DNA from: an uncultured virus (IMG/VR IMGVR_UViG_2061766007_000145)
Lineage: Duplodnaviria; Heunggongvirae; Uroviricota; Caudoviricetes
Reading direction: 5' to 3' (one strand)
Virus record (IMG/VR): IMGVR_UViG_2061766007_000145
Length of the DNA: 64,000 nucleotides
In this document: positions 16,601 through 60,506 of the stretch, in pieces
Position numbering within the stretch: position 1 is the first letter of the stretch
Layout: every line of letters begins with the position of its first letter
Notes under the pieces: model-generated
Told to the model about the DNA's origin: nothing
The model's input: only the letters and a program-made list of their open reading frames with translations
The model's database searches: none
Translations under genes and position numbers: made by a program

Positions 16601-19600
16601 TTACCACCTGTATTTATTTTTTGCGAGTTTGCTTCCTCCTACTAATCTGTCGGTGGTCGCAGCATGAAGGAAACTCTCGAACTTGCCATCAGCAACAAGC
16701 TGATTTACAAAGTCGTTGTAATCAAGCACACGCTCAATCGGAATGTTAATTTCGTATGAAATATTTCCAATCTTTGTGCCTGAACTGTCAGGTATTGCGC
16801 CTACTTTTGCTAATTGTGCAAGAGTATTAGACTGCCCGAACAGTTTTGCCAGTAATCCGTCTCCATCAGAAGCCTTCTTCATAGCGTCTTTCAGAGCGAT
16901 AAAGTTTGCAGTATCGCTCGGACTCAGCACTATCTCGGGATTACTCGGGGAACCGTCAACATGAGCTAACCCTGTGTAGTCCACAAGACCGCCTCGGGCG
17001 TACTTCTTGAGTGAAGATGTCACTCCGTTGATTGTTTGATTGGTAGACGTCTGAGCTTTGGAGAACGACGAATCATAAACCGCCAAAGTCGGGTTGTTCC
17101 TTGCGCTCCATATCTTAGCGGTTTCCTGCGAGATTATATATCCGACACTTTCACTCTCGGCTCTAATTGTCTGGCAGATAGCAGAGGCGTTATCGTTAGC
17201 GTAAGCAATCTCTTCGGCAATCAGAGCATCTACATCGTCCAAGCGCTTATTGAGAACCGTCTCATACTCGTTGTATAGATTGTCGATGAGCTTCTTTTGT
17301 TCGCTGATTGACTGCTCGTACTGGGTGTCTTTGAGGTTTTCTCGGGCTTCGGTGAGTTCAACCCGAAGCCGTTGCTTAACAGCCTTGCTTTCCTCGGATG
17401 AATCGTTGGAATAAGCAAGCATCTGTTTTTCAATCTTGGTAATTTCAGAGGTCTGATCTTTAACCTTTTTCTGATAGTCGTAGAGGTCTTTTGCGTTGTC
17501 AAGAGCGTCGGTGTATTTGTCTGCCAAATCTTTAAGAGCATCCAGTTCATAGTTGATTCCTTCCTCGACCATATCTCTGATAGCAAATTTTTCACCTTCG
17601 GCAGAAAGGATAGACTCTCTCTGCTTTTTCAGCAGTTCTTCTCGCCTGTCAAGAAGTTTGGTATTGTTCGGGTCTTTTGCAATCTCTTTGTTTATCTTCT
17701 TGATTTCGTCGGCATACTTGTCAGCCTGAGACATGTACACATTATAGGTTTGCCCATGAAGTCCAAGAATCGCCTTCCCGATATTGGTTAGTTGCCCAGC
17801 CCCAGCGCCTTCTTTGATAAACGAATCCGACTTTTCTAGCAGTTCCATCATAAATCCAGCTTCGTCGGTAATGGCTGTAACTTGAGAAAGTATATAGTCA
17901 AAGTGTTTCCACCCAACTTCACGGATTACGTTCGTGTATTTTACTACCTCGGTTTCAGAATCCTGAATTGCTTCGGAAGCACTATTGATAGCGTTTGTCA
18001 GTTCATACCATGCTTCAGAACCTTCCTTAATATAGCCAGACCTCGTTGCCTCGTTCAGATATTTAGTCAGCTCGTCGCGTTCTTTTTTCTGAAGCGATAA
18101 CCTCTTTTCAGCGTCTGTTCTGAGTTTCTCATAGTGTGATTCATCAACCAAATACCCATGTTCCTCGATATTGGCTATCTTGTTATTAAGTGTTGCAGCG
18201 TCGTGCGCAATAATAGAAAGCCGGTTCTCGTAATCCTTTTGAACCATGCTGAATCGCGTCTTGTAAAGTTCCGCCAACGACTCTTTTAAGGTGAGTACAG
18301 CATCGGAGCAAGCAAGAGACTTTTCATACCACTGCTTATAAGAAGTGATGAGCTTCTGAGTATTCTCGTCGTACTTCTTAATATCAATGGTTCCCTCTCT
18401 GACTTTCTTCTTTAGGTCGCTTGAGAGCTTGACAGAATCAGCCTGCTTCATGTAGCGGTCTGCGCCCTTTTGCTGAATTTCGATTTCCTTATTCAGCTTG
18501 GGGATTTCGTCGTCAGTAGCTTTCAGCCTTGTGGTAAGAGTCTGGAATGTACTCTTAACCTTTGTTTCGAGATTTTTGATTGCTCTCTCGACTCTGCTAA
18601 TTTTGACTTCAATCCAATCGACAAAATCGCTATCCTTAGAGCTGCTTGAGCTGCTACTTTTCTTTGAGCCGCTCTTTTTGGTCGATGATTTTTTGGTACT
18701 CTTCTTGGTAGTTTTCTTTTTAGACGCTTTAGCAGCGGCTTTCGCAGCTTTCTTCTGAGCCTCTTGAGCTTTCTTGATCATAGCGGCAATGTCGTTCGTA
18801 CTCATTATTCCTTCTGAGTACGCAGTTCCATTAACAAAAGCGGTTCCACGCCCGTTGATATAACCATCCCTCAACAACTCTTCGGTCTGCTTGTGATTGA
18901 AGACAATACTACCTTTAGGTATATGACGGAATTCTGCACCGTTGTCACCAACCGTATACCATTTTCCAGTTTTTACATCTGAAATAATTTCACGACCGGC
19001 TTCACCAACCAGAGCGGTTTCACTCTTTTTAGTAGCCCAGCTTCCGCGAGCGTGAGCAGTTCCATCTGCGTTACCGCCGCCACCATCCGGAGTTGTAGCT
19101 CTGAACCCGCCAAACGGAGTTTGCTCGTATCCGATTTTAATGGTTTTCTTCTTGAACGTGTAATTGTTGATAACATCAAGTTCTGCTATAATGTCATTTG
19201 CTATGGTTACTTTTATCTTCTTTTCGCCGATACTGAATTCGTCAATATCCTTAACACCTTTAAAGATACTATTAATGAGTGTCAAGTCATCCTGACTTAC
19301 CCCGACATTAGCCTTAACATCAATTGTTGAGTTGCTTATGTTGTCAAGCGCTGTATCCCATTCGTCTTTGTTAATGTTTAAGGTCGTCAGAATTTCGTCC
19401 GGGATAGTTTCCTTCATTTCATTCGCAGCAGAACGAAGCTTGTTTTGAGTCTCAGTGGTATCTACTCCGAGCGTAGTCTCTAACTCAAAATCGTTCATCA
19501 AGCGCTGATAGTTCTGTATTTGCTCAATTGCAGATTTNNNNNNNNNNGGAGGATGCCACGCCGTTGATTGTTTGATTGGTAGACGTCTGAGCTTTGGAGA

Positions 19601-22600
19601 ACGACGAATCNNNNNNNNNNAACAGAATCAGCTTGTTTCATGTAGCGGTCTGCGCCCTTTTGCTGAATTTCGATTTCCTTGTTCAGCTTGGGAATTTCAT
19701 TATCAGTGGCTTTGAGTCTTGTGGTAAGAGCCTGGAATGTACTCTTAACCTTTGTTTCGAGATTTTTGATTGCTCTCTCGANNNNNNNNNNNNNNNNNNN
19801 NNNNNNNNNNNNNNNNNNNNNNNNNNNNNNNNNNNNNNNNNNNNNNNNNNNNNNNNNNNNNNNNNNNNNNNNNNNNNNNNNNNNNNNNNNNNNNNNNNNN
19901 NNNNNNNNNNNNNNNNNNNNNNNNNNNNNNNNNNNNNNNNNNNNNNNNNNNNNNNNNNNNNNNNNNNNNNNNNNNNNNNNNNNNNNNNNNNNNNNNNNNN
20001 NNNNNNNNNNNNNNNNNNNNNNNNNNNNNNNNNNNNNNNNNNNNNNNNNNNNNNNNNNNNNNNNNNNNNNNNNNNNNNNNNNNNNNNNNNNNNNNNNNNN
20101 NNNNNNNNNNNNNNNNNNNNNNNNNNNNNNNNNNNNNNNNNNNNNNNNNNNNNNNNNNNNNNNNNNNNNNNNNNNNNNNNNNNNNNNNNNNNNNNNNNNN
20201 NNNNNNNNNNNNNNNNNNNNNNNNNNNNNNNNNNNNNNNNNNNNNNNNNNNNNNNNNNNNNNNNNNNNNNNNNNNNNNNNNNNNNNNNNNNNNNNNNNNN
20301 NNNNNNNNNNNNNNNNNNNNNNNNNNNNNNNNNNNNNNNNNNNNNNNNNNNNNNNNNNNNNNNNNNNNNNNNNNNNNNNNNNNNNNNNNNNNNNNNNNNN
20401 NNNNNNNNNNNNNNNNNNNNNNNNNNNNNNNNNNNNNNNNNNNNNNNNNNNNNNNNNNNNNNNNNNNNNNNNNNNNNNNNNNNNNNNNNNNNNNNNNNNN
20501 NNNNNNNNNNNNNNNNNNNNNNNNNNNNNNNNNNNNNNNNNNNNNNNNNNNNNNNNNNNNNNNNNNNNNNNNNNNNNNNNNNNNNNNNNNNNNNNNNNNN
20601 NNNNNNNNNNNNNNNNNNNNNNNNNNNNNNNNNNNNNNNNNNNNNNNNNNNNNNNNNNNNNATAGTTTCCTTCATTTCGCTTGCAGCAGAACGAAGCTTA
20701 TTTTGAGTCTCAGTGGTATCTACTCCGAGCGTAGTCTCTAACTCGAAATCGTTCATCAAGCGCTGATAGTTCTGTATTTGCTCAATTGCAGATTTAAGCC
20801 CGGCGTCATCAATTTCGTCCGTCTTAATCTTCATTATAGCAGGCTCGTTGAGAACCTGCTTTTGAGAGATTAGTTCGGTCATTATTGCGACAAGTTCGGT
20901 GGCACCCTCGGCTTGGAAGTTGATTGTCCCATCTTCGTTACGAAGCTTATTGAGAGACTCTTGCAGGTATCTAATTTCTTCTTCTCGTATATCCCAACTC
21001 GTTTTATCAATATCGAAATTAATACTAAGGTCTGTAATTCCAAGCTTATTTAGCTTTGCGTTTGCCTGCTCAAAAGAACTTACACCGTGGTTGTAATAAT
21101 TCTCGACGCTTGACTTCAGTTTACCAAGATCAGTCTCAGTTATGCCATCAACCTTGATTTGAATTTTACCCTCATCATTGAGCTTTGTGATGTAATCAGC
21201 GATTTGAGGAATCGTAGCCCCGCTCTCTTTAAGAGCGTTCACCATTTCATTAAGGTTGACATAAGAAACTCCTTCGGAATCCTCTCCGACAAGTTTCAGC
21301 TTGTTGAGGACATCAATAATGTCTTTAGAAGAACTGCTTGTAGTAAGATCTATTAAGATTGTATTCTTGTCCTTCTTCAGCAGGTCAAGCACATCATAGA
21401 CCTGTTTATCTGTATACCCATCTTCTCTGAGTTTTGCTTCGAGCGTAACGGAGTTAATAACGTCTTTGCCGTTAAACTTCTCACTCATTGTCGCGCCGAC
21501 CGCTTCTGCACGGAGTTTAATCTCGTCGATATTTTCAAGCACGACATTACTGTGAGTAGCCAACGCCTGAATGCTCGCAGCCAAACCGTCTTTAGTAGTT
21601 CCCAAGACTTTAGCAACGTCTTCGAGGTGACTGTTGCTCACCCACCACTTGCCAGTCTTTTTGTTATATGTCGCTATCGTTTCGCCGTTTTCGTCGAGTA
21701 ACTTGCCACTTTTATCGACAACCTGACTAAGCCTCGCAACCATTCCGGTTCCGAGGTCTTCTGCGTCACCATACATGACTCGAACTGTTTCAAGAGCCTT
21801 CTTAACCTTCTTAACATTGTATCCGAGTTCTGCAACTCTATCTTTGCCGAGTATATATTCGGCGTAAGCGAGAAGCTTTCCGTTGTCAAGGTCTGCCCCT
21901 TTGCTGATAAGCTCCATTGCGTCTTTGTACGCATCGGCATAACTCTCAAACGATTCTGTGCCAGATTTGATGTCTTTAAGAGAATCGGCAAAATCCGTTG
22001 CTGCTTGCGAAGCACTGTCAAACGCTGCGATTATTTTTGATGATGCATTTTCTATCATCAACTTGTGATTGTTAAACGCAGCCTGCCATTCCTCCAATGA
22101 AGCTAATGCGTCTCCATTTTCACAATACACCTCGTAGACAAGCTCCTTATCCTTTGCGGAGAGTTCGTCGAGCCATTTGTCAAAATCCTTGATTTCGGCT
22201 TTAGCTTTTTCGATTGCGCCGTCCTTCCACTCAAGAATCTTTCTATTGTTGGTGTCGATATTGCCGAAAACAGTCTGAGTGAGGTCTACGCCTAAATCCT
22301 GCGCTTCTTTTTCTATCTCGCTCAATCCGGTTGTTTTCTTGAATGCAGCCTTCATCTTCTTGACAGAGCCTTCAAGGTCGAAATCCATTGATGTCCCGTT
22401 AAAAGCGTTTGCAATTTTTGCCAAGCTCTTTTCAGAACTATCAGCAACTACCCCGATGTCAACAAGATTCTGAATGAAATCAGCATACTTGGAATCTGAG
22501 AGCATAGTCGCGGTAACTCCGCCCTGTTCGCCGAGTTTCTTTAGGTCACTGGTTACATCGGAATACTTATTATTGGCAAGGCGATTTAGCGCATTTTCTG

Positions 22601-25600
22601 CCGCTGTCGCAACGCCTGTAATAATTGCCAAACGGTCTTGCGTGTCGTAAACCCAGTCTAAATACGCGTTTACTCTGTGTTCACGCAAAGTTTGCGGATT
22701 TTCAATATACTCCAGATCGTCTGCATATTTCTCAATTCCTTCAAATATGTGAAGTGCGTTTTCGAGATACTCGTCTCCGCCGCTCTTTAAAGACTCAAGT
22801 TTTTCCTGAAGCTCTAACTCAAGATTATGCTTTACTACACTGTTAGTTTCTTTGTTTATTTTTTTACTATATTCTTCACGAAGCCTTTTGCTCTCAGTTT
22901 CAAATCTTTCTTGAAGTACTTTATAATTTTTAAGGTTTCTTTCAAACTCGCTCGATGCGGTTCTCTCGCCATTCACTATTTTGCCTATGCCGACCGCAGT
23001 ACTTTTGTCATAGTTGTAAGTGAACCCCTCAGACTGCATTTTGTTGTCAAAGATTCTGTATGCTTTATTCAGGTTTACGTTGTTTTTTGCTTTAAGTAGA
23101 TCGATGCTTCTTTGCAGCTCGTCGTTTTGCTTCTTTAACTTTTCAAGCTCGTTNNNNNNNNNNGCTTCCGGCATTTGACAAGGTATTCGGCGGCTGGTAA
23201 GTTTTTTATTATTTTTAAAGGAGTGATTGGATGCAAGGGCAGCTGGAAAAAAGAGAGAAAAGAGAGAGAGTCTATGTGAAAGTAACTTCCGATTTTGACG
23301 CGACAGGCTATATGCTGCCGCGCACAATCATATGGACGGACGGCCGCATATTCAGAATCGACGAGGTGAAGGACTTCCGTCCGGCGTGTACCTTCGGGAA
23401 CGGACGCACCGGCGACTGCTACACCGTAGTAATTGGCGGCGTAGAGAAGCACTTATTCTTTGAAAAAACAAGCGAACTGTTCGCCGCCCGCGTCGGCCGC
23501 TGGTATGTGGAGCGTCCGGTTATTCAGGAGCAATGGAGGAAAGCAAAATGCGCTACCAAATGAAGCTGCGGTCGCAACCCTTTGAGATGATACGTTCGGG
23601 GAAAAAGACCTTTGAACTGAGATTGTACGATGAAAAACGCCAGCAGATTAAGGTGGACGATGAGATTGAATTTTCCTGCGCTGACGCAGAAAAAGAGCCG
23701 TTTGTCGTGGTGGTGACCGGACTGCATTTGTTCAAGAAATTTGCGGAACTTTACGCTTCGCTGCCGCTGCTGCAATGCGGCTACACGGAAGAGAATGTGG
23801 ACAGGGCAAGTCCGGATGACATGAACCGCTATTACAGCGTGGAAGANNNNNNNNNNNNNNNNNNNNNNNNNNNNNNNNNNNNNNNNNNNNNNNNNNNNNN
23901 NNNNNNNNNNNNNNNNNNNNNNNNNNNNNNNNNNNNNNNNNNNNNNNNNNNNNNNNNNNNNNNNNNNNNTTGACCACCAATCTTGTGGTCGCCGATTCCT
24001 CACGAACCGAGAAAACCATCTGCCTTGCCGTTTCGCCTTCGCTGAAAGCCTATGGCATTCCGGGCAGGGCGCGGTTATTCGAGGTCATTCAGAAGGTCAG
24101 GGAGGTCAACCGGGAACGCCTGTCCGCCGGCATAAAAAGCGGGCATATCCGCAAGGGCGAGGACGGGCAGTATCGGTTTGTTTCCTCTTCCTTTGACGCG
24201 CCGACGCTGGCGGCAGACCCTTCGTTGGAACTCTCCTACTACGTCGCGCCGCCGCGCATGAAAATGTACGAGGAATACAGCACCCGGATTTATTCCATCT
24301 ATTTAAAGTACATCGCACCGGAGGACATTCACGTCTATTCGATAGACGAGGTGTTTATTGACGCGACCTGCTATCTTGATACCTACCGGCTGACCGCGCA
24401 CGAACTTGCCATGACGATGATCCGGGAGGTGCTTTACACCACCGGCATCACAGCGACCGCCGGCATCGGGACGAACCTGTACCTTGCGAAGGTGGCAATG
24501 GACATCGTCGCCAAGCACGTTCCGGCGGACAAGGACGGCGTGAGAATCGCTGAGCTGGACGAAATGAAATACCGGGAATTGCTGTGGTGTCACCGTCCGC
24601 TTACTGATTTCTGGCGCGTGGGCTACGGCTACAGCCGGAAGCTGGAAAAGCTCGGACTTTACACGATGGGCGACATCGCGCGGGCTTCGCTTGACAAATA
24701 CCAGGAGGCGAATCTCTACAGAATCTTCGGCATCAACGCGGAACTGCTGATCGATCACGCATGGGGCTGGGAACCGACCACCATGGAATACATCAAGGCA
24801 TACCGACCTTCCACTAATTCCCTGTCTTCCGGGCAGGTGCTGAAGGAGCCGTATGATTACGACAAAGGCCGGTTGATTGTGCGTGAAATGNNNNNNNNNN
24901 TGAGAAAGTATGTAGTCAAAGTGTTTCCACCCAACTTCACGAATCGTGTTCGTGTATTTTACCACCTCGGTTTCAGAATCCTGAATTGCTTCGGAGGCAC
25001 TATTGATAGCGCCCGTCAGTTCATACCATGCTTCAGAGCCTTCCTTAATATAGCCAGACCTCACTGCCTCATTCAGATATTTAGTCAGCTCGTCGCGTTC
25101 TTTTTTCTGAAGCGATAACCTCTTTTCGGCGTCTGTCCTGAGTTTCTCGTAGTGTGATTCATCAATGCTTCTTTGCAGCTCGTCGTTTTGCTTCTTTAAC
25201 TTTTCAAGCTCGTTNNNNNNNNNNCTCGATTTTTGAATTTTTTTCGCACTTTATTTTGCTGTGTATTATCTATATGCTGCAAATAAAAAAGCACAAGTTC
25301 CAGCTTTATTCTCTCGACATAAGGCTCAATAACGGTATCGTTTAAAATTGATAACATATGCTCATAATCGTCTGCATTTTTGTCTAATAACTGTCCTCTT
25401 TTGGTTGATNNNNNNNNNNTTCTTCTGTAAAAGTTAGCTTTTTCTTACTATTAAGCTCATCAATCCTATCTCCGGTAGATTTAAGCTCTCGTTCATCGAA
25501 GCAATCTTATCGTCGTTTTCTTTTATCTCAGATTTGAGAGAGTTCAATTCCTCGATTTGCTTCTCTTCGGCGTGAATAAGGTTGTCGAGTAAGGTGATAA

Positions 25601-28600
25601 TACCCTGTATCGCAAGGGAGATGCCAAATGAGAGGGCTACATTGAATGCGATAGTTGCAGCAGTGGCGGCTNNNNNNNNNNGTCGTTCATCGAAGCAATC
25701 TTATCGTCGTTTTCTTTTATCTCGGACTTGAGAGAATTCAATTTATCGATTTGCTTTTCTTCGGCGTGAATAAGGTTGTCAAACAAGGTGATAATACCCT
25801 GTATCGCAAGGGAGATGCCAAATGATAGGGCTATGTTAAATGCCATGGTCGCAGCGGTTGCGGCTATCGTTGAAGCTGTAGAGGTTTTTACCATTGAGTT
25901 TAAATCCCCAAGCTCTACCTTACCTTGTTTAACAGACACCGCCATTCTTTTTCCGGCGGCGCTGGCATTAACCATTGTCTCGCCCCATGCTTTACCGACA
26001 GGAATGCCGGACTTAATTTTATTGATAAAATCCGTGATATATCCAACATCGTTCTTTGTTATCCCCTTTCCAAAGAGCGAGTAAGACAACCCTTGTTTTG
26101 TTCCAATATCCCTGCTAATATCGCCAAACGATTTACCAAACAGACCAAAATTATTAGTTAAATAGTTACCACTATACTTATCTCCGTATTTGCTACCAAT
26201 TTTATTACTTAGATTTATAGTTTTGGTGAGGATCAGACTGTATCAAAATTGCTTGAAAATCTTGACATGTAAATATTTTCAGTATATAATCAAAATGATA
26301 ACAAATAGCAAATAAGATTTGGAAGTGTAAACGTGAAGCCAAAACAGTACAATGCGTATAACGCGTCTGGAAACAAAATTGAAAAGCTAAATAAATACTG
26401 CCCCAAGTGTGCTAAGTATTACGTCGTATCAGATTACATGTCTAAATGTCAGGTTTGCAAAACCCCTTTTGCCCATGCAAAACCAGTTGAACAACCCAAC
26501 ACTCCCCATTGCCCCACCTGTGGTTCAACCAACCTAAGAAAAATTGGTAACTTAGAGAGAGGTCTTTCTGTGACGGTCTGGGGATTCGGGTCGTCAAAGA
26601 TGGGGAAGCAATTTGAATGCAAGGATTGCGGGTATAAGTTTTGAGATAAGGAGCAACATATGTCGTTAGAAAGAATTAGAGATGTTTTCAACGCAATAGC
26701 CGACACGTCAAATCGTTCATGGAAACTATGTCTTCTCAGGTTTAATCAGACAAAACGGAATGGTACGTCGTATTTTACTCGGACGATTCGACTCGAACCA
26801 GAAGGGGCATTGACAGATTTTGTTTCCGGGTTGGCGGACGTGTATATTGGCGGTAATAATCCGAAACTTAACATGTATGAAGCATTAAGAAATTATGATG
26901 GATCAGTGGTCGGAAATTATATTTACAAAGTTGATTTCACCCAGCTTCAGATTCAAGATGTACTCGAAAAGTTTACGACTGTCATTGAAAACCCGGATAC
27001 AGAAATTAAGATTTCAGATACCAAGTTTAATGCTTATGTTATTTCCGGAGCCATCAACCAAGACGGTGATCACGAACAATCTGTCGCACTCGTCACTCTA
27101 AGGGCTCCTCTGTCAATACTTAAAAATAAGTTTTGGTTTTCGGAGGGAAGATTTGTAAAATCAGAAAAGGATATACTTACTCTGTCTCCGTTTGTAAATG
27201 TCGTGATCGTAGACGAAGACGTTTATTTCTTGGATTTAAATGCAGAGAGCCTGTTTGGATTTGAGCGTACATATAAGGATATTTGTGCGAAAACTTCTCA
27301 GGAAATTGCAGAGTTAAATATCGTTTCAGACGCGGAGCAGTTTACGGAGTTTGCAAATAAAGGTCATAATCCAAGACGCTTCCTATCCTTGAAGAAAGAA
27401 AACATTACCTATATTCAAAACGCCGACAACCTGATCTATATATCAGAAACATTTAGGATTAAGCTATCTGATAATAAGGTGGATGCCAGCGATGAGAAGA
27501 GTGTGGAAAACTTTATTAAGTTTATTTGCGGCAAGGCGATGATAAACCCGGTAGATGGTAGCCCGAGAGAAGTTCCATCATCCTATGATTGGACGTAATC
27601 AAATAGGAGCTGGGCGTCATTGTTAATTTGATACGCTGTCACTTCTGCTCCGATATTAGCCTCAAGGTCTTTTTGCTTAGTTGCGACTAAAAACAAATGT
27701 CCGTTTGCGTCTTCATCAAATCTGCATTTATAGTAATTGTAGCCTACAATCATAAGAGCAGCATTTGGAAAAACAATATTGTTCCTTATGCAAATAATCA
27801 TTATCGGAATAAAGAACAGCAGAAATGATATAACTCCATCGTACTGAGTAAAATTAAATGCACAAAGGGGAAGGGCAAAGCTGAAGATAAAAGTGGGCAA
27901 AATGTCCTTATCTTTTTCTGCGAAACAGACGATTCTTTTATGGCTATCAAACTTTTTAAAATGCCGAATCTCTAAGAACGTATCGGTCAGGCTTAATAAT
28001 ATCAGAATTGAGATTATCGGAATACTGATGGTTTCAATAAAAATATTGCTGTTGCTTTGATAAATACTAACTGCGTCCATATATATTATTACAAGCCACA
28101 ACGGAATAAAAGATGAAAAGAACAAGCTCGGTTTGAACAATATCGTCATTTTGATCGCCTCCTCTTGTTATTATTATATGCTAATTATAACATGATATTC
28201 TCAAAAATGCAACATGCATATTGTACAATATTTCTTTGATTATTATGCTTACGTTTTCAGTGTCCCATCTTCGGACTGTGGCATGAAATCTCAGCCAACA
28301 CAAAATTTTAGCGATACATCTCATCACCCATGTATCAAGGGTCAAGCATGTGTGATAAAGTGAGAGATGAGTTCACACTTTTGCTACCGTCACACTCAGT
28401 TAGTCCCGAGCGCATCTTATCACAGCATCGTTCCGTATAACTGTGATCACCTGTTGTCGCTACTGTGAGGGCTTACCCTATAAGGGTTTATCCCTGCNNN
28501 NNNNNNNCTTATAAACTCTACGGGAATAAATATTTGATACATCTCATCACCCATGTATCAAGGGTCAAGCATGTGTGATAAAGTACAAGATGAGTCTGCA

Positions 28601-31600
28601 CTTTTGCTACCGTCACACTCAGTTAGTCCCGAGCGCATATTATCGTGACATCGTTTCATATAATCACGACCACCTGTTGTCGCTACTGTGAGGGCTTACC
28701 CCATAAGGGTCTATCCCTGCNNNNNNNNNNACCGTCATAGCGTCCTTTCGGCACTATTGTGGTGTAGGGCTTTAGGAGTTACCTGCAATTAGATGTATTA
28801 TTTTACGCACATTTCTGTACGTACTGGNNNNNNNNNNGAACCATCAGAGCGCAGTTCTGTTACGACTCTTTCTTCGTTGCCGAATCAGAGGAGTGACTGC
28901 GGTGTACTGACTTCCTCGCATATTGAGGTGTTTAAACTGCTGTATCTCAGCAGCCGTAATATCTAAACTGCTCGTATCCGAGCAGAACTGTTATTACTGT
29001 CGGCACATTCACCTTTAGCGTGAGAGAAAACATTTTATCCCTACCGACGTTATTTTTTGTAGCGATTAATCCGGTCGCTACACCGACCAATGCGGCAAGT
29101 CCTATCCTGAGTTTTGCTACGGCGTTTACCGCACTGAGAATACCAGAGCCGAGATCAACGAAAAACTTAATCATTCCGCTTTGCATTATGTTTGCAGAGA
29201 GTTCTTGGAAAGTAGCGCTGAATTGTTTGATGTGATATTCAGTGCTCTTTTCATATTGTGAATAAGCTTTGTCGAGTTCTCCGGCGCTGTTTGCCATAGC
29301 GTCCATTGCACCAGAGGCTTCTTTGAAGCCGTTTATCATGCTAAAAAATATTGATTGCTGACGAGTCAAAAATATTTAGTTGGGTCATAACTCCAACTCA
29401 AGCTAATATGCCTGCTCATGCTTTCGCATGAGGTTAGACCATTTCTTCACCCACAGCCCTACTGTTTGGGGCACACCTTTTCCGATTAAGGGAATCTCAC
29501 CCGCGCCTTTATTTGCGCCGTACTTCTGTTGGCATTTCTGCCCTACGGAATGGTCGTTGAACATTACGCATATTACCGGAGTAACTTAGCGTCTTTGCTG
29601 CATGATCATCCATTGTCGCTGAACTTAGGCGTTTCCACCATATTCAATCCCTACGTTGTTTCTGCTTTTCGCGCCGTCATAGCGTCCTTTCGGCACTATT
29701 GTGGTGTAGGGCTTTAGGGGTTACCTGCAATTAGATGTATTATTTTACGCACATTTCTGTACGTACTGGCACGTATGTTTACCAGACAATGTTTCAGCAA
29801 GAGCAGCCTGTTCCATACTGCTCATGTTATCCCACTCTTTAGCAATATCCGCTACGATGTCGTAAGTGCTTCTGAACTCATTGTTTGCGTCAGTAAGCCT
29901 GACGTTGTGATTTGATAAACTTTGAACGAGTTTGTCGTATTCGGCATTAGTCATCGACTCGCCGAGTTCGTCAAGCTCTGTTTTTGTATTGCGGATNNNN
30001 NNNNNNTTGCTCCATGCTACTCATGTTATCCCATTCTTTAGCAATGTCAGCTACGATGTCGTAGGTGCTTCTGAACTCATTATTTGCGTCAGTAAGTTTG
30101 ACGTTGTGATTTGATAGGCTTTGAACGAGTTTGTCGTATTCAGCTTTAGTCATAGACTCGCCGAGTTCGTCAAGCTCTGTTTTTGTGTTGCGGATTCTTG
30201 CTGCGATTGTTCGCAGACCGGTTGAAGATTTTGCGGCATTTTGTCAATCTGTTACTTTCGGTTGAACCTACTGACCGCCTGTGGCGGCGGGGAGGAATTT
30301 CTTCCCCCCTCTGCAATTTCATTATTGACATATATTTGCAGTTCAGACCATACCTTCGTCCTGATTAATAGGATGGTAGCATACGCGCATAGTTACCTAT
30401 GACGCTGTGGTCGTTACGGGATTTGTTATATAACAATCTTACCCTCGGGGTTGTCCTTGCCATAGGAGTTTCACCGATTTGAGCTACTTTATTTCATGCG
30501 TATTACTACGCAGCACGACATAAATTTATCGTGGTGTTTGCCGCTGTGAGCAATGCAACCGACTGCTCGAATGAGTTTCCGGCAGCAGCCAAGGCTGATG
30601 AAGCGTTAGTCATACCTTCTGAAATCTGGCTGACGTTGATTGGGAAGTTATTCAGTCTGTTACTTTTGTGACCATAATCAAATATGGCGGGTAGGAGTTT
30701 CTTCCTACCTCTCGCGCTTATTTGGCTTATACGCGAGTTCGGACTGTATATTCACCTCTATTTAGAGGGATAGGCTGAGTGAGCAATATTACTATTATTC
30801 ACATGACAGTCTCTCGGGATAAATAATATTTGCAATTTTATTTTTTTATTTGATCTTCGGTGTTGTTATAATCTATTTCTATAAGTGGAATGTTATTAAT
30901 CCTACAAAACTCTCTCTTCCCTTTGTCAAGCTCTATTCGTCTTGCATACTCGTCTTGCCCACCGAATGGTACAATTGGGCTAAAGTGTTGTTCTCCCTGA
31001 TATTCAATAGCCGCATTATATTCTGGAAGAAAGAAGTCAAATCTTTGATTAGCGCCAATAATATCATTTAAAAATGGCAACTCTTCAATGGAATCCAGTC
31101 CAAGACTATTTAATAGATTGGCAATCCGGGTTTCGCCGGACGAGCGTCTAATACATCCACACGATTTAATTTTTCCGTTTAGGACAGACGCAGGCAAAGC
31201 CACAAATTGCGTGCCGCACTTTCCACACTGACATAACCACATCCACGTTCCTTTTGTATTTTTGTACTCTCTCCGAAGAAATTTAACACCATACATGGAC
31301 GTTACACCTGAGAAATCTTTTGTTAGGGCTTTACTTGCCCTTTCTTTTTGGAGGCACCCACATGATTGCGTATCTCCTGTTGTGAGATATGTGATTGGCT
31401 TTATTACCGTATTTCCACAATCACATATACATTCAGCTTTGCTCATTTGATTTGGTTCGCAAATCATTTTTGTTACGACAAGTCTACCGAATCTTCGCCC
31501 GGTAAGGTCTTTTCTGAGTCCGTTAGCTTGAATAGTTTTATAGTATTTTTCCATACACCCACAATGAGCGGGATTTATCGAATGAAGAATCCTGTACGTA

Positions 31601-34600
31601 GGTTTAATACATTCGTTACCACACTCACAAATACATCTTACGTAACTCTCTCCAGAGTTGCCATAACCATATAACATCTCTATAACGGTTAGATGCCCAA
31701 TCTTTTCGCCTGTATAATCCTTTCTTCTCGTTTTAATCCTCCTATTTTGCAAATATTAAATCTTTCCACGGTCTCTGAGGCAATCATCCCAAACCTCCTT
31801 TGACCGTTATAGCCTATTACTTTAACATATGTCGCCATATGTTTGGGCAATTTGTTTACCCACTGTTATCAGTTTGTCCATTACCTTATCGATCTGCATC
31901 GGGTCAATATCGAATGCTTTGATAATAGAGGTAACAGCATCCTGTGCGTCAGAAACATCAATCTCACCAAGCGCTTGTAACTTCGCTGTATACTCAGCCA
32001 TCCATTCGGACTCTTCCATCGTTTGGCCGAGTCTTGCATAAGTGGTTGCGCTACTGACAAAATCAGTTATGTCTGAGCCGACACGTTTTGCAGCCTTGGC
32101 AGCACTGTCAGAAAAAGCTCTCATCTCTGAATCGCTTGCCTTGGTGACAATCTGCATCTGAGTTAGAGCGGAATTAAGCTCAACAGACGCAGACACCATT
32201 TTCTTTATTGAGCGAATGGTGTACATTATCACCTGAGTGATAGTGAACCACGAACTGAACTTCTGCACCAAGTTGCCTATTTTGGCTGAGAATTTTTCTG
32301 TAGCATTGCCGTTCCGTACAAGTGTAGCCTCAGTTTCTTTGAGCGTACTATTGACAGAAGAGGTAGCACCTTTCAGATTCCGCAAGGATTCGGCATCTTT
32401 GTTCGCTCCGCTTGCAGCAGCTTTGAGCTGATCGACCTCTCTTTTAAGAGCAGCGTAAGCCTCTCGGCTTTCCGTATTATGACTATGTTCTGCGGCAGAC
32501 CAATTCCTCAGAGCTTTCTCGCCACTGAGTATGGCAGAATTTGCGGCATTCTGAATTGATTCACGGTTCTTTAGGATGGCGGCTTCTTCTTTGGCAGCGA
32601 CGCCGGATTGACTTGCCGCCGCCTTAAACTCTGACATTAATCGGTTAAGTTCGGATAAAGCTGTCGCTCCGTTTTTGCCCATCGACGATAGAGCCACTTC
32701 AAGTGTTTGGCTTCCTTTTGCACAATCTTGCAATTTGGGAGACAGCTTGTCGATATAGTCACTAAGTGCTTTATAGGAACCGCTCTCGTTTAGAGCACTG
32801 TTACTGTTAAGCAAATTTCTCGCAGCAGACACTCTATTTGTCAAGGTGTCAAGTGGAGTACCCATTAAACCTTTTTCGGTTAGCGAACCCTTCATTGTAT
32901 TTACGACACCGTTAATTTCGTTTATTAGATTATTGACGCCTTTTATTCCTTCGCTACCCGACGACGATAATATTGCTTTTAGCTTCCCGGCATCACTGTC
33001 GCACGTTTTAAGCTGGACGTCGAGTTTTGAAAGCAACGTAAGCAGCTTGTCGTACGGCTCAGATATATTTTTTGCTTCGGCATTTTTGTTTAAGAACGCA
33101 TGTGTATTAGCCGACGTCTTTTCTATATCCTGTAATAACTTCTGATATGTCTTAGCATCGTCTATGCTCTTTGTGACACGGTCGGTTGTTGTAATATTCC
33201 AAAATTGGTTCCCGTCATTATCAATAGTGCTTTTATAATTGAAAGTGGTTTGCAAGGCGGTGTTCATCTTGTCAAAAGAGTCAACAACAACTTTTGCCGA
33301 CTTGACAGTGCCATCTCCAAGTTTGTCCACGGTGAGAGATAGCTTCGATACTTCGCCGGTTGCCTCAACCATGTCTTTTGCAATCTTATCGGCAAAATTT
33401 TCCTCTACGCCTTTACCGACTAAGACGCTTTTTAATTCGGCAGCTTTTGATATTGGTGTATCAAAATTAATCGTATCAAACGATTCTTTAACAGTCTGCG
33501 CTGCTCCACGCACAGCCTCTCCTGTTTTATCTGCTCCAGCAGAAGCACTATCGAGAATTGCTTTAAACTTAGCTTCCTCCGCAGTCGCAGCCGCAACCTG
33601 CGCAGTCTCTTCAGAGATTTGCTGTCTAACTTGATTAATTGATGTTGTGTCAACACCTATCCGGGCTTGACTCATCGTATCAAGCTTCGCAAGAAACTCA
33701 GATATAGTTTGAGTTGCCGATGTCATAGCCGACACGAAAGAATTAACCGACTGTCCATTCTCACCAAGAGACTGAACCGTAGCAATGACCTTGTTGATGG
33801 ATTCGTTAATAGCATCTAACTGAGCGGTAAGTTTCTCTGGCTCAATGCCAGAGCTAAAAATCCCCTTCATTTTTTGAGCGGCAGTTTCAAACTCAGCCTC
33901 ACCGGTCATAATCTTCTGAACTTGAGATTTAAGTTCGTCCGCTGTGTGCCCAAACGAAGAAGTCGTAGCAGAAATATCTATCCCTTTAATAGAAGACGCA
34001 TCTCTGAGAACTTGGATATATTGCCTCAATGCGTCTGCTTTCATATACAAATCGGTTTTTGAGTTAATCGGGGTATCTTTGACCTCAAGCATACTTAAGA
34101 TGTTTTTGCCTTGAAGAGCCTTTAATCCTTCTCCCTCAATTACTTTAGAAAAAGCAACGGAGCCGTGGACAGATTGTTTTGTAACGCTCTGGTAGTATTT
34201 TGAAAGCGCCGTCTCAATAGCTTTTGCCTGCTCTTCCAGTTCATGTATGTATTGGGTCGCAGCGGTTCTTCTCGCTGATACGTTACCGCTTCCCATATTA
34301 AATCCGATGTTAACTCCACTAAACCCGCTCATCGCCGTCTGTAACGAAGTAATCTCTGATTTCAGCCCTTCGATAACCGGAGTCACCTGCTGCAAGTCAT
34401 TTACAATATTACCAGCGCCGGAGTTAGAAGCAAGCTTTCTGAACTCGTCCGATAGTGTTTTTATATTTGTGCTTGCTTTCTTTATTGACTCGCTCAGTGT
34501 ACCGCTTGCTTTAATAATATTACCGAACTCACTGCCAGCCTTTATCTCTATCTTCTGACCATTTAACGCGGCTATCTGATCTTTGATGGATGTTAGTTGG

Positions 34601-39379: not shown

Positions 39380-40801
39380 GACCTCCTCTCTGATTCTGGG
39401 CTATCGTCAGAACCTTGGGAGTTTTCTTTTGGGAAGTGTACATAGTAATCTGCAATGCCAAGTTCATAGTTGTCATCTTGGGTACTTGACACTTCCTGCA
39501 AAACGAATTTGAATATCCCTAATCCGTTGAACGTATATCCAAGCTTCATCGGCTTTGTAAGTTGATACGAGAGTTTCATTTCAGATTCAGGGTCGTCAAT
39601 TAAGAATCGACTTTTTCTGTCAAATTTAACGGTGTGTTCATTTCTGGCGATTACCATAGCGATACGTGAATCGCCACGGGTGGCGATGAAATGTCTCTGT
39701 TAATTAATCTTTACCTTTCGGTAAAGCACGGACTATATCTTCATCCTTTCGGATGCCTGCCACTTCGATCTTGTTAGACCTACTCCCTCACGGGATAGTC
39801 TCTGAACCTTCCTCTGTTCGAGGCTTGGCTGCTGATTGTCCAATCCTTATTGTTTTCAAACCTTTGCCGCATACGACTGTTCGCCGTTTCGTTTTGGTAA
39901 CAAGGCTCTAAGGAGTTTCCAGCAATTCAACAGGTATTTATTCAAACACATTTCTGCGTAAGCGGACTAACTTCTTAATCCTCCATCTCGCCAGTCAAAT
40001 CTTGTTTGTTTAGACGGTTCGCTAAACCGCCCGATTATTTGCCTTGCAGTTTCCTACAAGAACAGACCATATCTTCACCCATTCGGGTGCTCACCACTTC
40101 GGACTGCCAAACGCTTGCAGCCCTACGAGCTTTTGCTCTGGTCGTTGAACCTTCTCCTGTTTGGAGCTTGGCTGCTGATTGCCCATTTAAAAGCACTTAG
40201 GGTTTGACCTTATGCCATCTCATTCTTTCTTTCTGCTTTCGCCGCCATCACGCTTAGTCTTATTTCATACTTACGTTGTGGCAGAATGAGCTTTAGGACT
40301 TCCCAGCAATTCGATGAGATATTTTTCACGCAGATTACTCTACGCGGAAACTATTTCTAATTTCGTTCCGTCAGAAATGATACACCATTGTTCGTAAATT
40401 TTTCCGTCATCTTCCACCCACCGAAGAAGGAAGTTGCATTGTTCCATCAACGCTCCCGAATAAACTGTCCGGTCGGCATCCTTCTCTGTAACAAGCCATC
40501 GGTTGTCTTCCCACTCTACAAGCGCACCAAGCTCAATATCGTCACCAGCCTGAGAATACAAATACTTCTCGTTAAGGTTATCCGACTTGATTATGGCAAG
40601 CTGTTTCGTGATAGCCTTGCTGGACATTTCTTCATCGGTGATATTGTAACCACAATCTTGCCTGTAAAGCTTTATGGACTTGAATGACAAATTATCTTTT
40701 AGTCGCTTGTTGATAAATCGAACCTCTCTCTTAAAAGCGGCTCCTCGTTTCGTTCCGCCTCTGGTTTCAATTCTGTGCTCATAAGTGTCCCAGCAGCTCA
40801 T
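39370..40801 (-). CDS. Head closure / connector protein, 263 aa after splicing two introns
   Basis: Exons 40801-40360, 40000-39978 (23 nt) and 39696-39370 total 792 nt. Joined: SDGTKY LTGEMED|RHFIATRGDSRIAMVIARNE. Function inferred from position. Confidence 0.75.
39697..39977 (-). ncRNA. Group I intron B of the head-closure gene (281 nt, no ORF)
   Basis: P1 GGAU|/GUCC; AAUUGCUGGAAA; AAUCAGCAGCC; R UUCAGAGACUA; S GAAGAUAUAGUC (39742-39731); ends AACAG|AGA CAU. Confidence 0.92.
40001..40359 (-). ncRNA. Group I intron A of the head-closure gene (359 nt, no ORF)
   Basis: P1 GAAAU|/GUUUC; AAUUGCUGGGAA; AAUCAGCAGCC; R UUCAACGACCA; S GAAGAUAUGGUC (40076-40065); ends ACAAG|AU UUG. Confidence 0.92.
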
Positions 40802-42205: not shown

Positions 42206-44337
42206 TTACGCAATCTCGTAACGACCGATACCAGCATTAGTGCCAGACAGGATAATACCGGTACCCCACTTCTCGCCGAAGAAATACTCCTGAGTGAAGT
42301 CCGCGTTGTCAATGGGATTACCCATAATCATAATCGGATCACCCTCGTAGATTCTGTTGTGTTTAACTAAAGAAATAATATATTATGCATTTTAAGTTGT
42401 TAGAGCTCTCTCTGCGCTCCATCCAAGATAGACTCGTTTATACAATTTTTTGTATGGCATACCGAGTTCTTTTGCCCAATCAGATACACTCATTGTCTTC
42501 CCTTTATATGTGAGGTACCTCGTGTTTGTTCGGTTGTTAGCCTGCTCTGTCCATGTTGCCCATCTACAATTCTTGGGTTCGTAATTTCCATTAACGTCAA
42601 TTCTATCAATTGATAGGGTATCATCGTAGCCATGCGCGATCGACCAGTCACGGAATGTTTCGTAGCTTTCGTTCCACTCGTCACACACCTTGATACCGCG
42701 TCCGCCGTAATCAGAATAATTTTGAACATTAGGATTATTGCATCGTTTCCTCATATAATTCCATATCTTATATAATCTCGTCTTGCTTTCTCCATGTGTT
42801 GAAAACAGCTCTCTTGCTTTATCAGCCCGATGCCCAACATGACAACCACATGATACCGATGCTCCACTACGTAACGTTGTTCCGATTACGTCTCTGACAT
42901 TACCACACTCGCATCGACACTTCCACCTATGTACGTTATAACCCCTGTAATCCTTTAACGGCTCTGCCAATTCAATAACAGTCCACTTGCCAAATTTCAT
43001 CCCAGTCATATCAATAAATTTAGGCAAGTATTCACCTTCTTTTCGTTTTATTTTTTTGCATAATATATTAATTCAAGGATCGCTAATCCTGTCGGTATAA
43101 ATACCCTCTGCGTTTCCGCAGAGCACAGACTATATCTTCGTCTAAACAGACGTCTACCACTTCGACGACGCTTGCCGCCTACTCCCTTTTGGGATAGTCG
43201 TTGAACCTTCTCCTGTTTGGAGCTTGGCTGCTGATTGCCCATTGTTTAGTGTTTAGGATTTAACCTTGCACCATATTATAACTTTTTTCTGCTTTCGCAA
43301 CCGTCACGCTTAAAGCTGTTCGCTTTTACGTTGTGGTGTTATAACCTTTAGGGGTTTCCAGCAATTCGATAGAATATTATTCGCACACATCTCTGTATGC
43401 GCAGGCTATTTTACGCGGCGTGTGCCGTTTCTTTAACCTTAATGGGTTTCTCTCCGCCAGCAACAACGGTTATTACGTTGTCAGGCATGACAAACTGGGT
43501 GCTACCAATCTTATGTCTCTGCGGAATAGCAATAATATCAGTTCCGTAGAACTTACCATAGAAGCCGTTATTGTAAACATCCTCTCTCGCAGACTGACTA
43601 TTGTTAGCGGCAGTGCTGAACGGAGTGCTACCTACAAGCAGGTTGCGCACAGCCTTCTTTGTACCGATAATAGTAGCGGGCTGTCCGTTAGCACCAGCCT
43701 CTACATGTGCAATGAGGTCGAGCAGAGCGTCTTCGCTGTAAGTACCGGCAACCGCGCCGGGATTCGGATAGTATGTAGCACCGCCAAGCTGCGCCTGAGT
43801 TGCGCCGCTCCACAGACCGTAAATGTCATTGAGAAGCTTCTGCTTAAAGGATTCAGAAACCTTAGCAATCATAGCGTTGAAGTCTACTCTGTCAGCAAGA
43901 ACTCTGTTGAGCTCCTCATAGATTCTGACCACCTTGAGAGTTGTGGGGATGGAAACCTCAGACACACCGCTGAGTCTCTGACGTCTGATGCCCTGTGTGC
44001 CGTCAGCAGCTTCGGCTACGACGAACAGGTTGTTATCCTCGGTAAGAAATACGTTCTGATCGCCCTCTGCCACATTGCGGAAGTCAACAAACGAATTGAA
44101 GAACTCGTCACCCTGAAGCCCCTCGACAACGGTACGACTCAGAATTTCCTCGATAAGAGTGAAGAGACCGGAGCACTTACCGTCTCTGATGTCCTTGTAA
44201 TTAAGAGATGTCTTGCCGTTGTTTGCCTCGATAAGAGCCTGACGAAGTGTATCCTGAGACTGCTCTACGGAGTACTTCTCAACTCTGCCTTTGTAACCAT
44301 CAACGGCGAGCTTTACAATATCTTTCATATCAGCCAT
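42206..44337 (-). CDS. Major capsid protein, 349 aa after splicing
   Basis: Exons 44337-43436 and 42353-42206 total 1050 nt. Joined: KPIKV|IYEGDPIMIMGNP...GIGRYEIA*. Follows the protease and decoration genes; high-expression codon bias. Confidence 0.85.
42354..43435 (-). mobile_element. Group I intron in the capsid gene (1082 nt), HNH-type ORF in the P9 region
   Basis: P1 AGGU|/GCCU; R UUCAACGACUA; S GAAGAUAUAGUC (43139-43128); P9 CUCUGC-GGAAAC-GCAGAG; ends ACAACAG|A AUC UAC. Confidence 0.92.
42392..43027 (-). CDS. Intron-encoded HNH-like homing endonuclease
   Basis: CRCECG...SCGC, YGGRGIKVCDEW, LSIDRIDVNGNYEPKNCRWAT..EQANN. Confidence 0.8.
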   Translation of the reverse strand: MPKFIDMTGMKFGKWTVIELAEPLKDYRGYNVHRWKCRCECGNVRDVIGTTLRSGASVSCGCHVGHRADKARELFSTHGESKTRLYKIWNYMRKRCNNPNVQNYSDYGGRGIKVCDEWNESYETFRDWSIAHGYDDTLSIDRIDVNGNYEPKNCRWATWTEQANNRTNTRYLTYKGKTMSVSDWAKELGMPYKKLYKRVYLGWSAERALTT

Positions 44338-52974: not shown

Positions 52975-53736
52975 TTATATGACGCTTCGTTTTTTCATTA
53001 CAGAGTCTATGCGTTGTTTTGCTGCAACCTCGATAGCACAAGCGCTGCAATATTTTTGCTTTGCGCCCTTGCCGCTGTTCTTTTCTCTCGTAACCACACC
53101 ACAGTTTTGACACTCAAAATACGGTTCACCCTTATACCTCAGATATTGATACCCAAGATTTCTGAAGTCTGTGACGTTTAGGACTGTAGTTCCAGATTCG
53201 ATAAAACAAACTCTGACGTTGGTGTTGTCTATCTTCTTGGAGAATTGGAGCAGCCCTTCTGCGTTCAATGTATGGAACAGGAGACTCTGACGCCGAACAG
53301 ATGTGTTTATGTTCGCCATAGTCATTATCTCGCTGTCTTTATTATTTACCCATCCGTTTGAATTAGGATTTGCAATTTCCCAATATTTTGCAAGACATAG
53401 TAAAGTAAAGGCGAGCCTCTGAAGCTGTTTGCCACTCAGAGATTCTATTTTCCGCATTTCCGGTTCCGTTATCTGTATGCCATTAACATTAATTGAATCA
53501 CGTTTCAATGCCCTATCCAAAGCGCAGTCGATGGTCTTTTCCCATTTCGGCAGAGACGCCGTAGGGTCGCATTGAATGAGAAAGGTATTCAGCATTTTCT
53601 TCACATCTTTTTTGGAGTAATTATTCTCAATGTAATATCTTGCTACCCTGCTCAATGTTTCAAACGGATGTTTCCCCAATGATCTTGAAATAATTTTATC
53701 TTTAGCCCACTCTCGCTCGTTTAATACAATTGTCAT
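52975..53736 (-). CDS. Hypothetical protein with a C-terminal Zn finger, coupled to the RNAP gene
   Basis: CQNCG...KYCSAC; overlaps the RNAP stop by 4 nt. Confidence 0.65.
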   Translation of the reverse strand: MTIVLNEREWAKDKIISRSLGKHPFETLSRVARYYIENNYSKKDVKKMLNTFLIQCDPTASLPKWEKTIDCALDRALKRDSINVNGIQITEPEMRKIESLSGKQLQRLAFTLLCLAKYWEIANPNSNGWVNNKDSEIMTMANINTSVRRQSLLFHTLNAEGLLQFSKKIDNTNVRVCFIESGTTVLNVTDFRNLGYQYLRYKGEPYFECQNCGVVTREKNSGKGAKQKYCSACAIEVAAKQRIDSVMKKRSVI

Positions 53737-59669: not shown

Positions 59670-60506
59670 TTAAGCTGTTGTACCGGCTACAGCGTCGTAT
59701 GCGCTACACTCGTGAATAGCTCCGCTTACGATTTTACCTCTTATACCCCCGCCGAGATTCAGCTTGTAGTAGGCGTCGGCTATCTCGTCATCCGTTATAC
59801 CTATATACTGTAGGGTTTGAGCCGGAGAAGAATGGTTGAATATCTTCTGAAGCAGCATGAGCTGGCGGTAGTCGTTATTTCCAAAAACCATAACCCAGTA
59901 GCCAAAGGTCTTTCTTAGTGTGTGGGTTGATACCTTCGCTGTAATATTCAGCTCTGAGGCAATCCCTTTGAGTATGTTGTCAACCGCAGCTCTGCTAATC
60001 GGCTCGTTCTTATCCCTGCCGTTGGGTGATAAGCTTCTGAACATATAATCGCTCAGACACACATTAGGGGTGTTCTCCAAGTAGAGAGTCACAGCTTCTA
60101 TTACCGCGTTGTTGATCGTAATGTATCTGTTCATCTTCCGAGTCCTCGTATTACGAGTCTTCTTCTCGAACACAGGGAACTTATCCTTAAAGGTTAGATT
60201 AGGGTTGATGAGGTCGGAGAACCTCAACACACGAAGGTCACTCACTCTCAATCCAAAGTTGATACCTAAGATGAAGAGCATGTTATCTCTGAACCGCTTG
60301 TGTACAATGAGGTGGTCTGAGATGCGGATGAGGTCATCCATACTCTTAATGGCTTCTGCTTTGTGTTCAGGAGCAAGCTCGGTGGTGGTGTCTTCCAATG
60401 CTGGAGAGATCAGGGTCTCAGCAAGTGCCTTGCTTATATTTTGTTTGAGTGATGCAACATTAATGGTATCACGGTTTGAAGAATAGAGCTTTAATTCGAT
60501 TGACAT
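59670..60506 (-). CDS. Tyrosine recombinase (catalytic domain only)
   Basis: GLRVSDL (R), EKKT (K), HTLRKTFGY (HxxR), FNHSS...TLQYIG (H, Y). Confidence 0.9.
   Translation of the reverse strand: MSIELKLYSSNRDTINVASLKQNISKALAETLISPALEDTTTELAPEHKAEAIKSMDDLIRISDHLIVHKRFRDNMLFILGINFGLRVSDLRVLRFSDLINPNLTFKDKFPVFEKKTRNTRTRKMNRYITINNAVIEAVTLYLENTPNVCLSDYMFRSLSPNGRDKNEPISRAAVDNILKGIASELNITAKVSTHTLRKTFGYWVMVFGNNDYRQLMLLQKIFNHSSPAQTLQYIGITDDEIADAYYKLNLGGGIRGKIVSGAIHECSAYDAVAGTTA

Follow-up and report, generated by a model that had tools for sequence, protein, structure and literature searches.

The 64,000-nucleotide (nt) stretch of DNA analysed here, referred to as the window, is a scaffold of an uncultured virus (IMG/VR record IMGVR_UViG_2061766007_000145, Caudoviricetes) from a cattle-gut metagenome, and parts of it are present in 20 of the 22 listed runs, which come from 11 studies and are mostly labelled bovine gut. 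Its minus strand carries a phage structural module with portal, terminase, tail genes and endolysin, within which the gene for the tape-measure protein (TMP) is interrupted: one exon (29043..29414, minus strand) ends ...ATKNNVG, and the next (25682..26233, minus strand) begins ILTKTINLS... and continues for 184 codons without a stop until it reaches the next scaffold gap. The subject of this report is the element between these two exons, which a first-pass annotation, made from the letters alone, had taken for a group I intron with genes resembling those of the anti-phage system Kiwa in its interior. Both the break of the TMP frame after KNNVG at 29043 and its stop-free continuation from 26233, on which that annotation was built, are seen in the translations.

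Results

The insert is contiguous with both halves of the tape-measure gene

The scaffold around the TMP gene is a patchwork: variant duplicates flank N10 gaps, and 23231-25118 holds foreign material such as an ASCH gene and part of a Y-family polymerase. The window as a whole has 18 N runs, and the contiguity of the insert was therefore settled before anything else. Contigs of four runs were placed on 25682-31960 for this purpose. In two of these contigs, one of 12,790 nt (X1, perhaps the sample from which the scaffold derives) and one of 11,368 nt from an independent study (X5) that diverges by a few percent, position 28497 is joined directly to 28838 with no letters between, and both contigs run from TMP exon through ribozyme and cargo to TMP exon without gaps. 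The stretch that they skip, 28498-28837, to which no strand is assigned, consists of three N10 gaps and two stray pieces; it is a scaffolder insertion outside the true molecule and accounts for 340 of the 2,809 bases between the TMP halves. The corrected insert is thus composed of 29042-28838 and 28497-26234, is 2,469 nt long rather than 2,809, and is contiguous with both TMP halves. The frame does break and resume as first described, though over 2,469 nt and not the roughly 2.8 kilobases (kb) then given, and the assumed continuity of the cargo with the two TMP halves is borne out by gap-free contigs from two studies. At a depth of 53x, no DNA contig joined 29043 to 26233.

One of the stray pieces (28731-28827, 97 nt) nearly duplicates the beginning of the neighbouring intron, and the other (28508-28720, 213 nt) is a paralogue of the 3' half of the intron under study. 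Compared with that half, the latter pairs in 75 of 76 cells and has five pairs changed on both sides, four of them in helix P8, a result that was reached by 11 of 500 shuffles. This piece diverges after 28536 and is touched by a 402-nt X1 contig at a depth of 4.2, and we therefore regard it as a second member of the intron family that has a different downstream part and is present at low depth in the sample. Elsewhere around the TMP gene, tandem variant duplicates of TMP exon sequence lie across N gaps (29808-30006; 19538-25681), and the foreign pieces, which are on the opposite strand, comprise an ASCH-domain gene (23533-23846) and the Y-family polymerase fragment (23970-24890). This region of the scaffold represents either two strains interleaved or a mis-scaffolding.

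The corrected RNA contains a group I core

All core elements lie on the minus strand. P1 (28999..29048) is formed by exon positions 29048-29043 (GUCGGU) and a guide at 29004-28999 (GCCGAC), with a U.G pair at the 5' splice site and a P1a hairpin in its loop. The 5' half of the ribozyme (28838..29042) holds P1a, P2, P2a, P2.1, the 5' strands of P3 (28930-28926) and P4 (28919-28915), and P5-P5c with a GCAA loop; the 3' half (28400..28497) holds the 3' strand of P4, P6/P6a, J6/7, P7, P3', P8, J8/7 and J7/9. P7 (28461-28455/28414-28409) pairs 28461-28458 and 28456-28455 with 28414-28409 and leaves A28457 bulged, and the covariation model places P3' at 28452-28448 and P8 at 28447-28419. The joining regions are of the usual size, with six nucleotides in J3/4 (28925-28920), two in J7/3, AAGA in J8/7 (28418-28415) and GGACU in J7/9 (28406-28402). 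Beyond the core follows a P9-type peripheral region (28230..28399, minus strand), which contains AGUCC and then G at 28277-28272, has a minimum free energy (MFE) z-score of only -0.39 and is absent from one of the homologous introns described below (L009).

Unconstrained MFE folding of the corrected RNA recovered P1, P2, P2a, P2.1, P4, P5-P5c, P6, P6a and P8, and P3 appeared in a longer MFE fold; the 3' strand of P4 is complete only once the scaffold insertion has been removed. In the window, all 83 modelled pairs are standard, and by the coordinates of the model the core helices follow one another in the order P3, P4, P5, P4', P6, P7, P3', P8, P7', giving the P3/P7 pseudoknot. A complete and canonical group I architecture of the corrected RNA is supported by this model.

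The P1 of the first-pass annotation (GUCGGU/GCCGAC with U-G at the splice site) forms in the fold and covaries. Its other core strands, R/P7 at 28400-28410, S at 28273-28280 and P3' at UGAGAUGU, were misassigned, as covariation in four homologues places these strands elsewhere. Taking its P7 (28406-28402 with 28277-28273) and its P3' (28322-28315) for core helices would leave almost no J8/7 and would draw on a region that is missing in L009, and covariation favours the other assignment; the former R and S strands are instead J7/9 and its downstream partner.

Homologous introns share the core and differ in cargo

A family search with two conserved core motifs, in viral contigs of 103-141 kb, identified three homologous introns, all inserted at the same TMP codon after ...KN-x-G: L009 (3773-4681, 909 nt), L010 (4304-2431, minus strand, 1,874 nt) and L013 (4323-6273, 1,951 nt). 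These three contigs are free of N and have the same architecture as the window. Covariation was assessed by applying the window's model to a sequence-only MAFFT alignment of the four introns, which was not fitted to structure. Over the 83 modelled pairs, 316 of 329 cells (96.0%) are standard, 37 pairs show compensatory double changes (in P3, one AU/GC double change) and 35 are invariant, compared with 32.4-41.7% of cells paired and 1-8 double-changed pairs in slid controls. The first-pass annotation had tied its reading to homologues that combine one RNA core with variable cargo, and to covariation among them; three homologues with this core exist, the cargo differs among the introns, and covariation is present. 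Other searches gave nothing, and these comprised blastn of 25682-28497 against the phage collection, a search of the nearest record (G001), scans of viral contigs for exon 4 and for a single core motif, two metagenome scans, a genome-contig scan with KwaB and a look-up of the 5' half of the core (28838-29052) in other DNA stretches.

Splice-site pairings span the cargo

The element ends in ACAGUCUG at 26234, and its last six bases (26234..26239, minus strand) consist of a P9.0-type 3' strand (26239-26235), which pairs with J7/9, and a terminal G (26234) that stands ahead of the 3' exon in all four introns of the family. The P9.0-type pairing has five pairs in each case, GGACU/AGUCU in the window, GAACU/AGUUU in L009 and GAACA/UGUUU in L010, and two of the five are double-changed among the three. 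P10 of the window is formed in exact register by exon positions 26233-26225 and by 29013-29005, just 5' of the guide, with seven of nine pairs; in the window, L009 and L010, seven, seven and six of nine pairs form in exact register with different exon sequences. In L013, the same arrangement is found by reading, with about 5 base pairs (bp) of P10 and 4 bp of P9.0. P1 likewise tracks the exon, its first pair being GC/AU/GC and its second UA/UA/GC, so that two of its six pairs are double-changed within the set of four homologues, all of which keep the U.G. These pairings bridge 0.6 to 2 kb of cargo, and we regard the covariation of P1, P10 and the P9.0-type pairing across it as the strongest argument for placing the cargo inside a working intron, whose splicing is predicted from these pairings. 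A terminal position at 26234 and a P10 adjacent to the guide were correctly foreseen by the first-pass annotation; its P9.0 (AGAUG/CAgUCU) gives way to the pairing of J7/9 GGACU with the five bases before the terminal G.

The end of the element had also been said to parallel those of two further introns of the TMP gene. TMP intron 1 (30653-31857, 1,205 nt) has a gene for a 304-amino-acid (aa) HNH-type protein in P6 and ends in ACAGACUG, and TMP intron 2 (30245-30527, 283 nt), which the group I model RF00028 matches with only 24.4 bits, ends in ACAGAUUG. The X5 contig, which derives from a relative, lacks 31857-30653 exactly, and a further stretch that it skips fits the loss of 30527-30245. As natural intron-minus alleles, these losses confirm both introns and where they end.

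The two exons are predicted to form one tape-measure protein

The related viral contig L003 encodes an uninterrupted TMP of 3,634 aa, to which both halves can be aligned: residues 4-95 of the upstream exon match L003 TMP 1311-1392, and downstream residues 25-182 match 1428-1595. Between the aligned blocks lie 35 residues in L003 and 38 in the predicted spliced product, and the predicted junction NNVG/ILTKTIN falls on NNSGFFKTIN of L003. The alignment supports a spliced product, as predicted here, that is collinear with one uninterrupted TMP. The downstream frame is open from 26242, that is, from 9 nt ahead of 26233, and its first ATG, GTG or TTG lies at 26089.

The interior carries a Kiwa-type gene pair and a Zn-ribbon gene

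Three genes lie between the core and the terminal G. The kwaA-like gene (27583-28149, minus strand, i.e. the TMP strand) encodes 188 aa, has an AGGAGG ribosome-binding site and matches PADLOC KwaA over residues 3-178 with an E-value (E) of 3.9e-15 (12 models matched) as well as phrog_7312 (E 1.1e-17). The kwaB-like gene (26660-27598, plus strand, antisense to TMP) encodes 312 aa and matches Pfam PF16162 (DUF4868; E 8.6e-19, 68.7 bits against a cut-off of 26.3) and PADLOC KwaB (E 1.7e-12); a protein 98% identical to its product is encoded on an 11,368-nt contig. The two genes are adjacent and convergent, and their 3' ends overlap by 16 nt. The antisense unit begins with a gene (26333-26644, plus strand) whose 103-aa product matches Pfam Zn-ribbon families, among them Zn_ribbon_IS1595 (27.2 bits against a cut-off of 25.4). 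The three non-endonuclease genes of the first-pass annotation, KwaA-like, KwaB/DUF4868-like and Zn-ribbon, are thus recovered with Pfam and PADLOC matches. Membership of the first two in the KwaA and KwaB families is established, and the pair may serve in defence.

Pfam matched no IS200/IS605 transposase (tnpA, tnpB) in the three cargo proteins of the window, and no recombinase was found among them by Pfam or PADLOC. An 8-nt direct repeat, ACTGAAAA, occurs near both ends of the cargo. The idea that it is a target duplication was dropped, as such a repeat could arise by chance and one of the copies is part of the antisense promoter.

The cargo differs between the introns. L009 contains one antisense 154-aa Zn-ribbon gene only (4140-4604), whose product shares 44% identity over 52 aa (E 6e-14) with the Zn-ribbon protein of the window. 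In L010, a membrane/Zn-ribbon protein, a 46-aa membrane peptide and a DUF2513 protein are encoded antisense, and L013 holds a DUF2513 gene, a sense gene for 157 aa and an antisense Zn-ribbon/membrane gene. No Pfam nuclease family was matched by the cargo proteins of any of the four introns, and PADLOC gave no convincing match to the cargo of L009, L010 or L013. A run of about 14 G within the L013 cargo (4836-4852), just upstream of the end of the antisense DUF2513 gene, may be a slippage-prone tract or a sequencing artefact.

The antisense unit of the window is preceded by a putative promoter (26262-26290, plus strand) that matches the sigma-70 consensus at 12 of 12 positions (TTGACA-17-TATAAT) and lies 28 nt from the 3' splice site. 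Counterparts are present in L009 (12/12), L010 (12/12) and L013 (11/12), and consensus promoters thus face into the intron at 27-47 nt from the 3' splice site in all four cases. For kwaA, reading identified only an extended -10 element (28192-28184, minus strand; TGtTATAAT), which the promoter scan did not list, so that of the two sigma-A promoters initially proposed the antisense one stands in full and the other in this reduced form. A second 12/12 promoter within the L010 intron (3339-3367, plus strand), ahead of the DUF2513 gene, suggests two antisense transcription units in that cargo. On the TMP strand, no terminator-like site was found in the cargo of the window.

Discussion

In our judgement, the insert is very probably a single group I intron of 2,469 nt, with a Kiwa-type gene pair inside it, and its host is the TMP gene of a large phage from the cattle gut. 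The core of the first-pass interpretation, a group I intron in TMP whose interior consists of three non-endonuclease genes, finds support in the contiguity of the insert, the architecture of the RNA, its homologues, their covariation and the collinear TMP.

A number of results weigh against this interpretation. The model search proposed by the first-pass annotation came back empty, as RF00028 gave no match to 26234-29042 at E≤10, none to the two halves of the insert searched alone and none to L009 and L010 at E≤1 despite their contiguous cores. As a control, RF00028 at E≤10 also misses intron 1 of the same gene, though its 0.9-kb open reading frame lies inside, and an nhmmer profile derived from the window's five RF00028-type introns misses both the insert and the confirmed intron 1. 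MFE z-scores do not discriminate, with -2.36 for the candidate core, -2.88 and -2.5 for two checked introns and -3.78 for a TMP coding control. P4, P6 and P7 are invariant across the four homologues, and the case for these catalytic helices therefore comes from conservation and layout, not from covariation. The spliced junction 29043/26233 was not seen in the RNA-library contigs, which are few, and the only one of them at the 5' splice site (28894-29056) is unspliced and could be precursor or DNA. This contig belongs to RNA run X18, which also gave 28131-28390 and 31707-31921; run X19 gave 26721-26882, 27409-27807 and 28392-28432. These contigs are short and show neither splicing nor transcription, and the parts that they leave uncovered are uninformative. 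No intron-less or cargo-less allele of this TMP site was found among close relatives, and a homing endonuclease is absent from the insert, so that its mobility lacks an explanation. Kiwa is a two-gene operon, from which the convergent KwaA and KwaB genes of the window differ. Finally, the 3' ends of introns 1 and 2 and of the candidate have a look-alike in an AGUCC-G at 28277-28272 (ACAGUCCG, 28272-28279), which could compete with the distal tail for J7/9, giving a truncated product ...NNVG-KMGH-stop with four extra codons.

The want of spliced RNA, the RNA-library contig that reads unspliced across the 5' splice site and the silence of RF00028 would favour a dead intron, i.e. a relic ribozyme with an ordinary moron beside it in a phage that makes its TMP as two polypeptides or is defective, and the gene call of a relative (P0001) does begin near the same place. 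The downstream half, however, has no ATG, GTG or TTG before 26089 and no ribosome-binding site, both halves are one protein in L003, and compensatory changes keep P1, P10 and the P9.0-type pairing in diverged phages, which a relic would not need; we therefore consider this explanation unlikely. Less likely still is a short intron that splices after G28272, leaving the Kiwa cassette outside and the TMP truncated or restarted. It is suggested by the AGUCC at 28277-28273, which can take the place of the distal tail in pairing with J7/9, is followed by G and resembles the 3' ends of introns 1 and 2, but its product would be the one that stops after KMGH, P10 to this site is poor by reading, and L009 lacks the region altogether, whereas all four members have, at the distal end, a P10 of 5-7 of 9 pairs with their own exon and a P9.0-type pairing of 4-5 bp. 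Within a full-length intron, the proximal site may be an alternative 3' splice site, either cryptic or regulatory.

Two further explanations concern the DNA itself. An intervening element that recombination excises before late expression could be imagined from the interruption itself and from an integrase-like gene at 59670-60506, yet the 29043-26233 junction was absent from DNA at 53x, the cargo has no recombinase, and the RNA pairings would be left unexplained, which makes such an element highly improbable. The suspicion that a scaffolder or a chimeric contig joined cargo to TMP pieces arises naturally in a window with 18 N runs and with both duplicated variant pieces and foreign pieces in its TMP region, but the same gap-free order is found in two separately assembled contigs from two studies, and three N-free viral contigs have the same architecture, so that we rate the chance of an assembly artefact as close to negligible.

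Taking the insert as a single group I intron, its layout would be as follows. The first ~430 nt would form the ribozyme, P1-P8 with the P3/P7 pseudoknot, followed by a peripheral stretch of ~170 nt and by passenger genes over ~2.0 kb, and the last six bases would provide the strand that pairs back to J7/9 in the manner of P9.0 and the terminal G. Late transcription would run through the whole insert, the guide sequence would hold the 5' exon in P1 and the 3' exon in P10, the P9.0-type pairing would draw the distant 3' end to the core, and splicing at 29043/26233 would restore a single TMP reading frame. Given the consensus host-type promoter on the antisense strand and the extended -10 element of the sense gene, the passengers could be expressed without late phage transcription, provided that these promoters are active. 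The same intron family occupies the same codon in other phages with different passengers, which suggests that the P9 region works as an exchangeable slot, and the slot envisaged by the first-pass annotation gains strength from the contrast, across four introns, between a variable cargo and a ribozyme and splice sites that are retained in place. Whether a family of TMP group I introns has in this way turned its P9 region into an exchangeable slot for autonomously promoted, mostly antisense passengers, which are harmless to an essential late gene by virtue of a far 3' site tethered by a five-base pairing and the guide, and which in one case include a complete Kiwa pair, is in our view evenly balanced. 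The spread of the intron may carry such passengers between phages.

The usual view of group I introns is that they carry homing endonucleases or, in the case of IStrons, insertion sequences (IS). The IStrons CdISt1 of Clostridioides difficile and BcISt1 of Bacillus cereus consist of a 5' group I ribozyme and a long protein-coding passenger, which separates the core from a distant 3' splice site, and are thought to be removed from the transcript; their passenger is an IS200/IS605 element, which also moves the chimera. In this arrangement they are the nearest architecture to that of the window, which differs in having a phage TMP gene as its host and no Pfam transposase in its cargo. In place of the IS element, the intron family described here holds a Kiwa pair and small genes of Zn-ribbon or DUF2513 type, most of them antisense and with consensus promoters of their own. 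The nrdD (sunY) intron of phage T4 has its open reading frame in P9, downstream of the catalytic core, and its far 3' splice site is set by P9.0 and P10, but the frame is one sense homing endonuclease gene of less than 1 kb, compared with two convergent units of ~2 kb and no endonuclease here. Phage morons and prophage defence genes are likewise autonomously promoted accessory genes in the late structural region, whereas those of the window lie inside an essential coding sequence and would be made harmless by splicing rather than by an intergenic position.

Group I introns in prophage TMP genes have been described in the Bacillus cereus group (TMP-IVS1, 2 and 3; Tourasse and Kolsto 2008, PMC2504315), where, according to the available part of that article, they belong to IA1/IA2, have P1 and P10 fitted to the insertion site and mostly lack a complete homing endonuclease. 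Like the insert of the window, they are group I introns in a TMP gene; they carry a homing endonuclease or no complete one, and that part of the article describes no gene cassettes or defence genes in them. What would be new is not the presence of a group I intron in a TMP gene but a variable, self-promoted accessory cargo that includes a Kiwa pair, and our search of the full-text literature turned up no article on group I introns that house defence genes or independent gene cassettes. One article (PMC10448857) does use the word cargo, in the part available, for a different concept. The Kiwa defence system is composed of KwaA and KwaB (bioRxiv 10.1101/2023.02.26.530102, as far as its available portion goes), and the window resembles it in encoding a KwaA-like membrane protein and a KwaB/DUF4868 protein side by side. 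It differs in that the genes are convergent with overlapping 3' ends, that kwaB follows a Zn-ribbon gene and that the pair, a candidate defence system, sits inside a phage intron.

If correct, this interpretation would mean that immunity genes carried by phages can be concealed in a new way, inside a coding sequence, where the output of gene callers shows no more than a 'split' tape-measure gene. The ribozyme would in addition be a natural example of one whose 3' splice site can lie 0.6 to 2 kb from the core, held by a short, defined tether, a property that is relevant to engineered splicing and to circular-RNA designs.

The phage is unusually rich in introns. RF00028 identifies introns in head or structural genes at 39709-39987 (101.7 bits), 40043-40351 (76.4 bits) and 43106-43481 (84.3 bits), with an HNH gene (42392-43027) just downstream of the third. 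The nhmmer profile of the window's group I introns in addition matches 54592-54713 (minus strand, E 3.8e-05), next to a GIY-YIG homing endonuclease gene (54775-55560), and the match and this gene lie between two pieces of one gene, phrog_35857 (55617-55913 and 53733-54524); it is probably a further intron that falls below the Rfam gathering threshold. Finally, a RAGATH-16 RNA was matched at 62803-62874 (plus strand) with 80.5 bits, the gathering score being 65.6.

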